Positions 5,870 to 58,406 of a stretch of DNA of 64,000 nt are shown here, piece after piece. The notes under the pieces were generated by a model, which saw only the letters and a program-made list of their open reading frames with translations, searched no databases and was not told where the DNA came from. Every line of letters starts with the position of its first letter. The first letter of the stretch is position 1. A program made the translations under genes and the position numbers. The stretch lies in the NCBI GenBank assembly GCA_905178155.1, contig CAJINV010000013.1:362344-426343 (forward strand), in the 5' to 3' direction. This DNA is from Amoebophrya sp. A120 (taxonomy: Eukaryota; Protista; Dinoflagellata).

Positions 5870-8551
5870 CTGAAAAACGCCCCGTATGTGACACCGCGGG
5901 ATTTCGTGGGAACCACAAAGTACGAGAGATCACAAATTATCCCCCCTCTATTCTACTTAAAGGGCAAGCGCAGTGACAGAAATGCCATCTTCATTTCGAG
6001 TTGACAGAAGTGAGATACATCGAGTTGATGCGCTGCTGAGATCTGTGGTTCTGGTCGGTCATCGCAAGTTTGTCATGCGAGCAAAGGCAAAAGGCAGCAA
6101 CAGGATTTGGTGTGTTGTGCGACAGATGGTATCAAAGGGAGGGGGGAGGCTGTGCACTTTCATACGAAGGATCTGAATTTTACCACGGCGGAAACCGGTG
6201 TCTCGACTGTATGGCGGTCGAAGATTTGAGTCAAGGATGCATCTGTCAGGTTGTGAGGATATGAAGAGGCGGCTTCGTTAAAGAAAATTACATTTATAGG
6301 TGGAAACTTGCTCTTGCATGTCCTGAACGCCGGAGGAATTCGCGCGTGATTCCTGACATCAATTTGCATCCTCGACGGAAAATCTATCTTTGGATAAACC
6401 ATGGCAACGGTGCCCGATGTTTCAACTGCAGCAACAACGGAGCCGGAGGTGCCGATCGAGCCCGCGCCCACGACCCGGCCGGCCCGCCGTCGTACATGAG
6501 ATTGATTGAGGTGTGAACCTCTGCAGCAGGGCTGATGAATACTATGAGCATTTCCGAAGCGAGCAAGGATGGTCTCACTTTTGACAACGAAGTCTACGAC
6601 TCCTTCGAGTTTTTGCTGTAGTGAGTAGCATATCATTTTGCAACGGTTGTGCACACTGCTCGAGCCGTAACGTCGACAGACAAGCGGTCTGACCAACCCA
6701 CATTTCCAATACTACACTAAAGTAAGATAAACCGAAGCATCTACATACTACTTCGGGACCACATTGTACATACCATAGGGAAATAAAAGTAAAAGAGCAT
6801 AGCGCTCCGTATCCATATAAGGCTCTTTGCGCTAAAAATGTCGAGACAGCAGCATGTCGGGAACAAAAAGAAATCTTCCGATCGTGAATTATCTCTGCAT
6901 ATAACTCGTCTCTGCGAGCCAAGAATTCGAAAGAAATTTGACCATCGTCATTTGTGTTCGTGGTTCTGTTAAGAGTTGCAGCCACCCAGCAATGGCTTTT
7001 CGTATCGATCATAGTCTGCAAACAGATCGCGACTTTCGGACGTTCGAAACTGTCAACGGCGACGAGGTGAAATATGTGAGAGAGACAGATATAGAAAAAA
7101 ATTTTCGTTCGATGTTGGTTGCTCTGATGCCGCCGACAAATCAGGTGTATGGGTGGCGCAGCAAAAGCAGACCTGAAGAGTTCCTTCAGACGACAGCCCC
7201 GCCTAAGAAGACAGCGCAAAACTACTGCAAGGCTACAGCGCTGCTCGGGCCGTGCAGGTCGTCTCGCGAACAAGACAAAAAGCGCATAAAAAGACAAAAG
7301 AATTATATTTGCTAAAATAACATGCCTCTCGCGTTTTCTTCTTTGTTGCAGGAGCTCCTTGTGGACGGCGACTTTTTCCCCAGCGGAGGACCGACCCGAC
7401 TTCATCTTCACGGGGCAGCTTCGTTCCCCTCGCATGCGCACATGGTACCCTCCAACACATTGGATGACCAACACGGTCAGCACAGCATCGGCGGTCCGCT
7501 TTCGGAATTTCCGAACCCAAGCACCGTGGCGCACTCACGCCATGCAACCGCCTTCGACGACCTGCGTGTTATACCTCCACCCGGCGGGGTGCTAAAAGCG
7601 GTGACGGACGCCAGGAAAAACATGTTCCCCGGGGAAATGGGGAACGGGGGCGCGGACGGTGGGGGCGGCGGGAGCGGCGGGAGCGACGGGAGCGACCACG
7701 GTTCCAATGCCGGGCACGACGGCGGCACGCTCGCGCCCGGGCCGGCCGGGTCCTCCTGGCTGGTGTTAGAGAAACCGATGCCAAATGACGCCGTGCTGGT
7801 GGACTCGGATGTCTTCAGCAAGAAGTACACGTTCAGCACCGCCGCCGCCACTAACGGCGAGCAGGTGTGCCGGGGGCACAGCAAGCAGATGGCAAGCGGG
7901 GAAGACTTCCTGAAGCAGTGGAAGCACCCCAGCTTCCTCTTCAGCCGGCGGGTGCACCGCGTGCGGGTGACGCTGCGGGAGCTCCTCAACAGCGGAACAA
8001 AGAACACGTTGTGGGACGCGGAATACCACGGCAAGGAAGATTCGCCCGGGTCCGACTACGAGCTCGGGGAGACCGCAAAACCGGAGGAAAGCATTTCCAG
8101 CATGCCCTACTTTCGCTACTTCTGTCCGCCCTTCAACACGAACCAAAAATTCGAGCTGTGCGTGGAAGATCGAGACAACAACGGGTTTCGCGAGTGCCAC
8201 ACGCTCGAAGTCGGTGGAACGGATGAGGAATCCCGCGAAAACATGCCGGAGCTCAAGCCCCTGATGGAAACGACGCGCGAGTGGAACGGCGTGATGCCCG
8301 TGAAAAATCTCGGTCTGGTGTCCACCCGGGCCTTTGCGAACGCCGGCGGGGTAAACGCTGGCGAAATTCCCGGGGAAGACGGATCTGGCTCAACGGGGTC
8401 CGCGGGCAGCCACAGTGTGGGAAGCCCGCACAGATCTACCTCCAAGCACCGTCTGTCGGCGACCCGGTTTGGAAAGCCGCGCTATCCGCTCCTGATGGGT
8501 GCGCGGGAGGATCCCAGAAAAATTCCCAAAATACCGATGCAGCTGTCGTGA
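5870..8551 (+). CDS. Multi-exon hypothetical protein (5' end uncertain)
   Basis: The terminal exon 7352-8551 joins the 6938 frame through a GT-AG intron at 7145-7351 (207 nt, frame kept). Upstream Cys-containing coding blocks lie near 6170-6260 and 6385-6510. Confidence 0.5.
5921..6164. mobile_element. TA-TIR introner-like element
   Basis: TACGAGAGATCACA...TGTGCACTTTCATA inverted ends with internal CCCCCCTC/GAGGGGGG. Flanks are CAAAG/CGAAG. Confidence 0.6.
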
Positions 8552-55500: not shown

Positions 55501-58406
55501 ACCAGGACCTGCACGCCCGCGGCGGGTCCCCGGCGGCCGCGCCCAAAGGCCTGGGCATGACGCGACGTCCCCAGGTGGAGGATTCCTTCGAGAAGCGGTC
55601 GGAGGTGGTGCTCAAATTGGTGCACGACTTTGAAACCGGAGCAGGAGCGGCCATGTCGCTGGGGCCCCTCGGGGGTGGTCTTGGGGGGCACCAAGGGAAC
55701 ACCTTAGTGCTGCAGGCAGAGCAGTTTTTCCAGATGCACAACATCGACAAGTCGGCTATGGGATAGTTCTCACATGTCGCATTCTCAACTGTTGTACATG
55801 AATTTGTATTTGGTGCGCTGCAGAAATTATAGCAAAAGTAAGTAAGTAGGGCGTGCGCGACCTCTCGCGATGCAGGTTTGGCAAAGATTATTTCCATCCT
55901 GTTTGGGCCTTAAAAGATTTGTCATGCGAAGTAGCTGGATCGTGTCGGTGACAAATCCTGGTTGTGCGTGACAAAAAATCGTGCAACATTTGAGAATGTA
56001 AGTCTTGAAAATTCCCATATCGGCGCGGGACATCTTCTGGTCCAGCTCGGTGGAGGTGCAGCAGGCGGTGCTGCGCGCCGGCCCGCTGGTGGACGCCCGC
56101 AACACCTCGGCTGTGCTGGTGAAGCGCGTGAATTCCCTGAGTTCACAGCTGAACCTGGGCCCGCTGCACCATAGCCTCGTCGAGAACGGAAAAAACTCCG
56201 CTGTGTTTTCCAACAACAGTGCCCGCGGAGCGCTCGGCAACAGCATCACCGGCGCCGGAGACTACCCGTTCGGCAACAACAGCCTTGCTGCTGGTATGAA
56301 AGGGAGTGGCTCGTCCACCTTCGGCCACCTGAACGGGCTGTCTGGCGCTGGCAAGGGACAGGGAGGGACTTCTATGGGTCCTTTCCGAGGAGGACACGCC
56401 TCCCCTTTCCAGCAAGGCAAGAGTGGCACTGGCAACAGTTCTTGCGGTAATATTTCATCTTCACTGTCCGGCGGCGGAGGAGGTGGTGGCCCGCTGAGTA
56501 TCGCTTTGAGCGCTATGTTTGCGCCAGCCGGCAGTCCGCCCTGTTTATCATACAGAGAAAGCACGCTAGGAGGTCACATTTATGCAAAAGTAAACACATG
56601 GATTGTAGTTCTCTCTTGCATGGCGATGGCGTAAACACCGTGCTATGTGCCTGCATATGACCATAAATTTTTTTGCCTCTTTATTTTTGGATGACGAATG
56701 TGCCCTGGTACTGGTAGCTTTTTTCTCTCGGATACTCTTCGCCAGCCACGATGGCGGCTCCGTCGTGTGGTCAGCCATCGATGATGGGAGGACGGAACAA
56801 TAGTCTAGCCATGCTGCATATGGATTGTAAATGTGTGGGGGTCTGGAAAGAATGGTATTTTTGATGCTAAGAACGTTGACTTTCGATCAACACACAAAAT
56901 AACTGTATTGCATGAGCAGCAGGTTTTTTCTGCCCGGAGAAGGCATTTCTCTTCCAGGATAGGAAGGAGAAAGCCATCGCAAAACCTGTACTGCTAGAGC
57001 GTATAGCACAATAGACATCGTAAAAAAAAAAAAAATGCATGACAAGGTCAGCCAATCTTCGAGACCCAGACATATTTGCACTGGACATTGCAGGCCGAAG
57101 CGGCGCAGCAACAGACGCAGTTCCTAGCTTCTCCGAATCACCACCAGCACAGTTTGTCTCCAACGATGCCGATGCAGCAGCAGCAACAGAAATGTGCTTT
57201 CGGTGATAATTCGAATTCCACTTCTGCTTCCCCCGGTCAACATCATCTCGTCGTGCCAAACAGCAGTCCGCATTCGCACGCGTCTGGACCTCCACGGGCA
57301 ATATCCAATGCGGTCTCCGGAGGTGCTGGCCGTTCCTCCGTGTACAACAACCAAAATCGGCACACCAACTTCGGGGGGCACCTCCCTGGTCAACAGCAGC
57401 TGCATCAGCAGAACCACGGCAATGTGGGCACAGGACCGATGAACTCCTCGTCATACAATAATTTCCACCAGATGAACAATATGAACAACCAAAGGAACAA
57501 AAACAACTTGCAGAATTTCGGAAATATGAACAACTCCTCCGCCACGAACCATCTGTCGCTGGAACGCCAGATGTGGTACAACTCGCGCAACACATCGAAC
57601 TGCAACCAGCTGTGGAGCCCACCGTCGTCGCGCGAGAGCTCGCCGGCCCTCGGACCCGCGTCGGGGGGAGGGCTGTCTGGTGGTACTAGTAATGGGGGCT
57701 CCTGCAACGGCGGCTCCTTGGCGCCAGGAGGAGCGGCCTTGGGACGGACCAGCAGCTACAGCGCCACTCCGTTGCTGCCCCGGTCGCACTCGTCGCTCCC
57801 GGCTTATGGACCGTACAACCATCAAAATGGAGGTGCGACGAACAACCCGCAGTTCTTCAACATGCCTCGGTCTTCGCTCCAGGTGCCCTACAATGCCTCC
57901 TCTGCGGGTGGTGCTCTTGGACGGGGTGGAAATAGCAACGCGGAAGGAGCAGGAAAGCCGTGCTGGGAGACGTCGTTCGAAAAATCACTTCAGGAATGGC
58001 TGGATTCGGACAACAAAGCGTCTGCTGGAACAGGTAAGTGCTAATAGTACTGCTACTTGTTCTAACATGGGTAATTATGTCATGCAAGTTGGAGTTCGCC
58101 TTCTCGCACGCCATAAGATGCGAGCAAAGGGTTGCTTTTATTTGTTACTGCGTAAGGCTAAGGATCATGAGAACGACAAGTAGGATGAGCGAGCACAGGA
58201 ATCGTAATCATCTCACCGATCTTGTGCTTGTGAAATTTCCTCGCAATAGTAAGTTTCAGCTCGTCATTCTGTTGATTTTCCCTTGAACATTGAAATTATC
58301 CAAAACAGGCTCCTCATCTGCAGCTCGTTCGCATGTTGGCCAGGGTGGTGCTACGGAGGATGAAGATGCGCACAGCTGGGTGAGCAAATTGATCAGCGAA
58401 ATGTAG
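52545..58406 (+). CDS. Large multi-exon low-complexity protein with an Asn/Gln/Gly-rich C-terminal region
   Basis: 726-aa first exon. Downstream exons join through introns at 55757, 56546 and 56819 and a GT-AG intron at 58034-58308, ending at TAG 58404-58406. Junctions in 54690-55480 are not fully resolved. Confidence 0.7.
55757..56019. mobile_element. TA-TIR introner, 263 bp
   Basis: TATGGGA...CATTCTCAACTGTTGTAC / GTGCAACATTTGAGAATG...TCCCATA. Perfect TSD TCGGC. Removal gives IDKSA|RDIFWSS. Confidence 0.92.
56546..56734. mobile_element. TA-TIR introner, 189 bp
   Basis: TATCATACAGAGAAAGC / GCTTTTTTCTCTCGGATA. Flanks are CTGTT/CTCTT. The frame stays open after removing 194 nt. Confidence 0.75.
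56819..57087. mobile_element. TA-TIR introner, family B
   Basis: TATGGATTGTAAATGTG...GGGTCTGGAA / TTCGAGACCCAGACATATTTGCA. Flanks are CTGCA/TTGCA. Removal gives LAML|QAEAA. Confidence 0.85.

Follow-up and report, generated by a model that had tools for sequence, protein, structure and literature searches.

The 64,000-nt stretch of the dinoflagellate Amoebophrya sp. A120 analysed here (contig CAJINV010000013.1, positions 362,344 to 426,343; hereafter the window) carries about 28 inverted-repeat elements of the form TA...TA, 113–483 bp in length. We consider it probable that these elements are the introners already published for A120, that is, transposons with terminal inverted repeats (TIRs) that landed in exons and duplicated 5 bp of their target, and that each is removed as the element plus one copy of the duplication. 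An initial annotation of the same DNA had listed 20 intron starts, all 20 of which do begin with TA, and had attributed them to a non-canonical system in which a terminal stem and a fixed 5-nt ruler set the splice sites. The system as such is already in the literature for this genome, and the '5-nt ruler' is the target-site duplication; introners in general are removed together with a single copy of the duplication, so the geometry is not new. Positions below are those of the window, and the elements, introns and genes described lie on its plus strand.

Elements were collected by an anchored gapped scan that considered every TA...TA pair 100–700 nt apart and kept non-overlapping elements, with six first-order Markov simulations of the window as the null. 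At a TIR score of at least 14, the window yielded 15 elements, compared with 0, 0, 1, 1, 1 and 2 in the six simulations; at a score of at least 16 it yielded 12, compared with 0 in all six. A repeat search found arms of 32–38 nt, 84–92% complementary, for the elements at 17534/17839, 16659/16975, 40153/40469 and 20577/20838. TAT opens 22 of the 28 elements and ATA closes 24 of them, and the left motif (TAT, about 7 variable nt and at least three A) occurs 30 times in the window versus 14.5 ± 4.1 times in shuffled sequence.

The target duplication is exactly 5 bp and lies flush with the TA ends. Among the 15 elements scoring at least 14, flanks compared at length 5 have a mean identity of 0.73 and are perfect copies in 7 cases, whereas at lengths 2–4 and 6–9 the identity is 0.20–0.40 and none is perfect. 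Shifting the element ends by 1–3 nt leaves an identity of 0.16–0.27 and zero perfect 5-mers, and random flank pairs would provide 0.015 perfect copies per 15. The perfect duplications share no sequence: the five named in the initial annotation (CGGGG, GCCCA, CAGCT, ACTTC and TCGGC) are all present, and to these we add CCTCC (element at 37056) and ATTTT (element at 39861). The earlier statement that most elements offer no GT-AG pair in any register also holds, in that GT-AG, GC-AG or AT-AC is possible in only 1 of the 28 elements across six registers.

Several elements are related to one another. The families are 16659, 40153 and 48834; 20577, 56819 and 12433; and 39861 and 43087. In BLAST and global alignments, the element at 48834 aligns to 16659 and 40153 with scores of 127 and 135 when inverted versus 65 and 42 in direct orientation, and 39861 likewise aligns to 43087 with a higher score when inverted. 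A single family is therefore found in both orientations within plus-strand genes, which is consistent with signals residing in the symmetric ends. With TIRs, a duplication of fixed length and several related copies that lack coding capacity, the elements are small non-autonomous inverted-repeat transposons, or miniature inverted-repeat transposable elements (MITEs). No match to transposase families was found in a Pfam scan of the 140 plus-strand open reading frames (ORFs) of at least 85 aa (minus strand not included).

Four copies (16659–16975, 17534–17839, 40153–40469 and 48834–49154) are palindromic over their full length, with 65–72% identity to their own reverse complement and minimum free energies (MFE) down to −135 kcal/mol. 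This palindromy agrees with A120 family entries of the type 'termTIR about 305 of 319 bp' in the excerpt of table sd07 of Gozashti et al. (2025, PNAS, PMC12130899) used here. Candidates with a TIR score of 11–13 were not counted, because the real and simulated counts overlap in this range (4–11 per simulation at a score of at least 12, and 11–21 at a score of at least 11); they start at 798, 1253, 4630, 5644, 11212, 14024, 15407, 38088, 41080, 46102, 50925, 51197, 52128, 53578, 56567 and 58250.

Intron lengths and a candidate register of the cuts

The lengths of the removed units can be read from an SF1/UPF1-like helicase gene (AAA_11 + AAA_12) at 15390–22870, identified by Pfam and by an annotated protein. 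A 239-aa exon translation (19940–20656) used as query retrieved P0001, a 1219-aa 'unnamed protein product [Amoebophrya sp. A120]' that is 100% identical to the window exons; the next match was the A25 orthologue, P0002, at 79% identity. P0001 maps onto 15390–22867 as 16 exact pieces, giving 16 exons and 15 introns, and for each gap we enumerated every donor/acceptor pair that reproduces the protein. The 15 introns comprise ten that coincide with an element and five plain GT-AG introns without one (at 15884, 17110, 18981, 19726 and 22026). The AAA_11/AAA_12 matches themselves cover 19940–22157.

In all ten element-introns the intron exceeds the TA-bounded element by 5 nt. The element and the intron measure 301 bp and 306 nt at 16226–16526 (duplication CCACT/CCACC), 317 bp and 322 nt at 16659–16975 (CGGGG, perfect; TIR score 30), 306 bp and 311 nt at 17534–17839 (TTCAC/TGCAC; TIR score 40), 225 bp and 230 nt at 18205–18429 (an old element with ends TAG...ATC; TCGAG/TCGCG), 337 bp and 342 nt at 18500–18836 (TTAGG/CCAGA), 257 bp and 262 nt at 19367–19623 (GAAGT/GAAAT), 262 bp and 267 nt at 20577–20838 (GCCCA, perfect), 299 bp and 304 nt at 21074–21372 (3′ end decayed to AGA), 202 bp and 207 nt at 21598–21799, and 212 bp and 217 nt at 22455–22666 (an old element; TTGAG/CTCGG). 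Nine of these starts (16226, 16659, 17534, 18205, 18500, 19367, 20577, 21598 and 22455) had been listed in the initial annotation; they belong to this one gene, and the lengths fixed by P0001 follow the element + 5 rule stated there. GT-AG is possible only in the intron at 18500.

The coding sequence on either side of the elements is preserved. The elements at 20577 and 21598 split the motifs QLPP|TV and DT|IDGFQG, and both of these, together with GVH|SSK, had been said to be restored on removal; P0001 contains all three, uninterrupted at the junctions. Over the helicase junctions the A25 orthologue aligns colinearly, with the junction residues VE|GEF, GL|E and LS|E conserved and an identity of 50–88% per exon. 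The +5 rule also holds where the two copies of the duplication share only 1–2 of 5 bases (18500, 22455, 47580 and 49724), so removal is independent of repeat identity. The earlier claim that the geometry survives decay of the duplication is thereby upheld in 10 of 10 helicase introns other than the plain GT-AG ones. On this sequence evidence, the removed unit is likely to be the element plus one duplicate copy, which would restore the frame that existed before insertion.

Outside the helicase gene, a plain test of frame restoration by ORF span was non-discriminating, because GC-rich DNA contains many open frames, and a codon-usage phase test was used instead. The underlying score was trained on the P0001 exons and six long ORFs, and for each candidate the test determines the length, modulo 3, that has to be deleted to bring the best-scoring phases on the two sides into one frame. 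It returned k = 2 mod 3 in 9 of 9 helicase controls and in 14 of 17 other candidates, and all seven candidates with both margins at least 8 fit element + 5. Among the starts listed in the initial annotation, the phases at 12433, 13368, 40153, 47580, 55757, 56546 and 56819 agree with element + 5, the coding signal in the flanks being weak for 40153, 56546 and 56819.

Protein evidence from a second gene bears on two further starts of the initial annotation, 48834 and 49724. P0121, an unnamed 629-aa homologue, is colinear across the junction at 48834–49154 (321 bp; ACTTC, perfect; an inverted copy of the 16659/40153 family) and bridges it without a gap. It also covers the exon after 49724–49913, an old element of 190 bp (AGCAG/TGAAA) whose 195-nt intron keeps the frame and matches the protein. 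Both introns therefore stand, with the correction that the second element ends at 49913 and not at its best TIR partner. In the same gene, the comparison with P0121 implies at least one further intron after ...DLRKI (~49349; region 49349–49660), and, around 50130–50240, either an additional intron or an insert of 36 residues.

The helicase protein also constrains where the cuts fall relative to the element ends. The registers compatible with P0001 run from −3 to −1 at 18500, from −1 to +1 at 22455 and from −1 to 0 at 18205, and they have only −1 in common; A25 has the same residues as the annotated protein, and at 49724 the comparison with P0121 slightly favours −1 or −2 over 0. Because the flanks are arbitrary and the element ends are the only information that the introns have in common, one or both of the cuts must be positioned by their distance from these ends. 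It is a sound inference that the cuts would lie at a fixed offset from the element. If one register serves all introns, the intron would most likely include 1 nt upstream of the 5′ TA and 4 nt downstream of the 3′ TA; the sum of the two spacers would be fixed at 5, and the 1 + 4 split is what we infer from the three junctions. With register −1, the intron has ordinary GT-AG ends wherever the duplication is of the form NNAGG; 18500 is such a case.

A G precedes the 5′ TA in 12 of the 28 elements, so that in register −1 the intron would open with GT. When the two copies of the duplication disagree at position 5, the G is in the upstream copy in 5 cases and in the downstream copy in 2. This excess of G may reflect drift towards a canonical donor, in numbers too small to test.

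Other elements and genes of the window

Nine elements were absent from the list of the initial annotation. Besides 21074–21372 in the helicase gene, they are 10211–10434 (224 bp; TIR score 20; duplication 1/5), which links two reading frames of the AT3 acyltransferase gene; 29789–29901, a short element of 113 bp (TIR score 20; TGGAA/TGGAG) with a weak phase test that misfits; 30642–30977 (336 bp; TIR score 20), also a phase misfit, with weak downstream coding signal; 37056–37293 (238 bp; CCTCC, perfect); 39056–39404, a candidate of 349 bp whose TIR score of 11 lies inside the null range and whose phase fits; 39861–40108 (248 bp; ATTTT, perfect), which is inverted relative to 43087; 41461–41943 (483 bp; TIR score 15; duplication decayed to 1/5); and 43087–43343 (257 bp; TIR score 16), for which the phase fits with good margins.

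The remaining listed elements outside the helicase and P0121-related genes are 5921–6164, 12433–12687 (255 bp; 20577 family; phase fits +5), 13368–13692 (325 bp; duplication 2/5; phase fits +5), 40153–40469 (317 bp; CAGCT, perfect; 16659 family and in the same orientation as 16659), 47580–47828 (249 bp; duplication decayed to GCTCG/TTTGT; phase fits with good margins), 55757–56019 (263 bp; TCGGC, perfect), 56546–56734 (189 bp; CTGTT/CTCTT) and 56819–57087 (269 bp; 3′ end decayed to ACA; CTGCA/TTGCA; 20577 family). For 5921–6164, the proposed structure (TA...ATA, 244 bp) and the duplication (CAAAG/CGAAG, 4/5) are present, in flanks that show no clear coding signal on either strand.

Three introns call for a different description from that first given. 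Those near 15889 and 29551 had been cited as exceptions to the rule. The former is an ordinary GT-AG intron at 15884–16074 in the P0001 gene model, and the latter, read from the sequence as GTACGT...TTATAG at 29551–29736, is likely to be one as well. The start at 11230 had been taken for an element + 5 intron, and that excision meets a stop codon. An intron there may instead use a GTATGT donor that starts a base upstream of the TA. The remains of a decayed inverted repeat end near 11466, and 11229–11505 is one GT-AG option that would keep the frame.

In addition to the SF1 helicase, the Pfam scan of the plus strand found an AT3-SGNH acyltransferase (9434–13550), a PIP5K fragment (31189–31542) and an SNF2 helicase (61022–64000), and an Rfam scan of the 64-kb window found no match. 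Of 710 bins of 90 bases, 265 have the higher coding potential on the plus strand and 93 on the minus strand, and all Pfam-supported genes of the window are on the plus strand. This bias fits the unidirectional gene clusters reported for Amoebophrya. At E ≤ 0.001, Pfam gave nothing for the long plus-strand ORFs of 453–797 aa at 1018–3351, 24326–25804, 41772–43130 and 52332–54722. These ORFs probably encode proteins specific to the lineage, which is what has been reported for the majority of A120 genes.

Candidate mechanism and its rivals

We propose that a non-autonomous inverted-repeat transposon would land in an exon and generate a 5-bp target duplication, and that the excising machinery would then position its cuts by distance from the two symmetric ends of the element, with TAT, about 7 nt and an A-run on the left and a T-run, about 7 nt and ATA on the right. 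Pairing between the element ends would close a terminal hairpin and draw the flanking exon ends next to each other. The intron would start N-U-A-U-(C/G), so that any base could stand first in the 5′ splice site, and the T-run of the right arm, ~10–15 nt before the 3′ cut, would occupy the position of a polypyrimidine tract. The enzyme would probably be a relaxed U2-type spliceosome. In MFE folds, the ten helicase element-introns form 19–34 end-to-end pairs between their first and last 40 nt, compared with 0, 0, 4, 6 and 15 in the five canonical introns of the gene. Across the 19 element-introns folded, the number of end-to-end pairs is 14–34, and the better-kept copies have fold z values of −2 to −11.8.

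A number of observations weigh against this proposal or narrow its base. The old elements at 19367, 21074, 22455, 18205 and 49724 fold no better than shuffled sequence (z 0.0 to −0.7) and are still removed. A wobble bias sought in the arm mismatches of 25 elements was not found (G·U 44 versus A·C 39, beside 111 transversions, 64 gap columns and 744 Watson–Crick columns), and its absence means that there is no sign of protected RNA pairing. Arm positions 4–10 are poorly complementary, even in young copies with perfect duplications. The register rests on three junctions, of which 18500 is a GT-AG intron and perhaps a special case; without it, both −1 and 0 remain. Three of the 17 phase tests misfit (29789, 30642 and the dropped candidate 46102), all with weak coding signal, and 11230 departs from element + 5 at its stop codon. 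The evidence for splicing comes from a single annotated protein together with one orthologue and one homologue. The exon translations of 47637–48236 and 12612–13367, from two apparently real genes, matched no A120 protein of 351–2000 aa in the protein collection; the corresponding models may be absent, longer than 2000 aa or differently framed. Of the stem and 5-nt ruler first proposed, the ruler is thus supported as a fixed offset from the element ends, its 5 nt being the target duplication, whereas the need for a stem is not borne out, given the lack of wobble bias and the removal of old elements with z near 0.

Given these observations on the stem, we retain as the main rival a reading in which linear signals suffice: a relaxed spliceosome would recognize N-UAU(C/G) as the 5′ site and a T-run...AUA at a fixed short distance from the 3′ site, with no structural ruler and with the hairpin as a by-product. 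We judge this unlikely, while giving it more weight than any other alternative. The even counts of G·U and A·C mismatches and the continued removal of old elements with z near 0 speak for it, and TAT (22/28) and ATA (24/28) are better kept than arm positions 4–10. It can also draw on the nearly complete set of spliceosomal proteins and the U2, U4, U5 and U6 small nuclear RNAs described for A120 in the excerpts used here of Farhat et al. (2021, BMC Biol 19:1, PMC7789003). On the other side, all ten helicase element-introns still pair end to end (19–34 pairs in the MFE folds), a 3′ cut in arbitrary sequence without AG would be an unlikely choice for a normal second step, and a comparable paired motif is genetically required in Euglena, according to the parts of Nomura et al. 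(2025, PNAS, PMC12501133) considered here. Removal without a spliceosome, for instance by an endonuclease and a ligase that act on the hairpin and release circles, as proposed for the nonconventional introns of euglenids, is improbable in our estimation. The geometry does resemble the Euglena code, with a paired terminal motif and fixed spacers summing to the target duplication; removal is independent of element orientation; and U1 was not detected in A120, as far as the Farhat et al. excerpts (PMC7789003) report. Against it stand the element-intron at 18500, whose ends in that same register are a perfect GT-AG pair, and the inverted- and direct-repeat organisation that the same excerpts give for 15% of A120 canonical introns, which suggests one machinery for both kinds.

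Two further explanations would dispense with splicing of the elements altogether. Template switching classically occurs where direct repeats enclose a hairpin, and a reverse transcriptase that jumps from one repeat to the other across the hairpin, or wrong gene models over insertions that kill the gene, could mimic introns. The rule, however, holds at repeats decayed to 1–2/5 (18500, 22455, 47580 and 49724), where no microhomology is left, making a reverse-transcriptase jump untenable; moreover, a helicase with ten insertions keeps its motifs and frame after their removal and is colinear with the A25 orthologue, and codon phase is preserved in other genes too. We regard such an artefact as extremely improbable. 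The internal eliminated sequences (IESs) of ciliates are bounded by TA and are excised from DNA by a programme, and the TA at both element ends and the precision of removal could be taken as signs of a similar excision in expressing nuclei. Here, however, the duplicated unit is the 5-bp flank and not TA, and there is no sign of two genome forms. In addition, tens of thousands of genes carry the elements in the assembly, which was made from parasite DNA, and in the passages available from Farhat et al. (PMC7789003) the elements were defined by RNA-seq against that DNA. We give excision at the DNA level almost no credence.

Relation to known systems

Our preferred reading, in which the elements are introners removed with one duplicate copy, places the window within a described system. 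In the excerpts of Farhat et al. (PMC7789003), more than 60% of A120 introns are non-canonical, and these average 240 nt; the introner inverted repeat starts with TAT, followed by about 7 variable bases and an A-run. In the same excerpts, Fig. S19 has 'Direct repeats of 5 bp' and Fig. S23 places the inverted repeats 1–5 nt from the splice sites; for A120 they also give the hairpin model, a MITE-like origin, a missing U1 and borders that 'remain unknown'. The window elements come from the same genome and show nothing different in kind, with TAT repeats, short direct repeats and hairpin-capable ends. They are more uniform than the direct repeats of '3-5 nt' at variable position described there: the duplication is exactly 5 bp at the TA ends, the rule holds in 10 of 10 cases and there is a candidate register of −1/+4. 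Among related strains, A25 has repeats that start with TTA, and AT5 has almost exclusively GT-AG introns.

In the material consulted from Gozashti et al. (PMC12130899), 58 A120 introner families are listed, and most of those in the 22 rows of table sd07 are classed as 'TIR DNA' of unknown superfamily, many of them nearly palindromic and about 150–350 bp long. Most of their splice sites are non-canonical, being 'co-opted' from flanking sequence, and the automated duplication lengths for A120 range from 2 to 5; for one family, manual inspection fixed the length at 5 (PMC12130899). Whereas these automated calls vary, the window copies are uniform at 5.

The introners of Micromonas pusilla and Aureococcus anophagefferens, as reportedly described by Huff, Zilberman and Roy in 2016, are TIR transposons inserted in exons; the intron there is made up of the element and a single copy of the target duplication, and either orientation is spliced. 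The unit of element plus one duplication is the same there, but those introns are canonical GT-AG introns with one splice site carried by the element and one co-opted, whereas 27 of the 28 window elements lack a canonical pair. In the tunicate Fritillaria, MITE-derived introns without GT-AG are said to occur in the majority of genes, with a recurrent AG-A(N) pattern. Hairpin-ended transposon copies thus serve as non-GT-AG introns in Fritillaria as in A120; AG-A(N) recurs in the former, whereas no dinucleotide recurs in the window.

The nearest genetically proven 'ruler' is that of the nonconventional, MITE-like introns of Euglena, for which knock-in mutagenesis defined the code 5′-N3-CDG...CH′G-N5-6|R (the portions used of Nomura et al. 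2025, PMC12501133). As far as these portions describe it, Euglena resembles A120 in having a paired motif at the ends of MITE-like introns and conventional introns alongside, and its fixed spacers to cuts in arbitrary flanks would have a counterpart in the candidate register of A120. The two differ in the motif (CAG/CTG versus TAT/ATA), in the sum of the spacers (8–9 versus 5) and in lineage (a euglenid versus a syndinean dinoflagellate). The Euglena machinery is, in the same portions, thought to be non-spliceosomal and to form circles. We tentatively suggest, with the balance of probability somewhat against it, that A120 uses an orientation-free code N1-TAT...ATA-N4, in which the cuts fall 1 base before and 4 bases after a paired end motif and any bases may be cut, and that this is an independently evolved dinoflagellate counterpart of the Euglena code N3-CAG...CTG-N5-6. 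If this is true, the spacer sum would equal the transposon target duplication in both Amoebophrya and Euglena, and hosts would have repeatedly evolved a 'measure from the hairpin' excision that exactly erases a given transposon family.

To the published account of A120, the window adds a duplication of exactly 5 bp at the TA ends, a rule without exception among the helicase non-GT-AG introns, occurrence of the elements in both orientations and decayed junctions that point to one register. Introns without GT-AG that form the majority in a genome challenge the textbook view of splice-site recognition, and they illustrate how transposons create introns genome-wide. If the register holds across the genome, an explicit splicing code, comparable with that of Euglena, would replace 'borders unknown' and would allow correct gene prediction in syndinean genomes.

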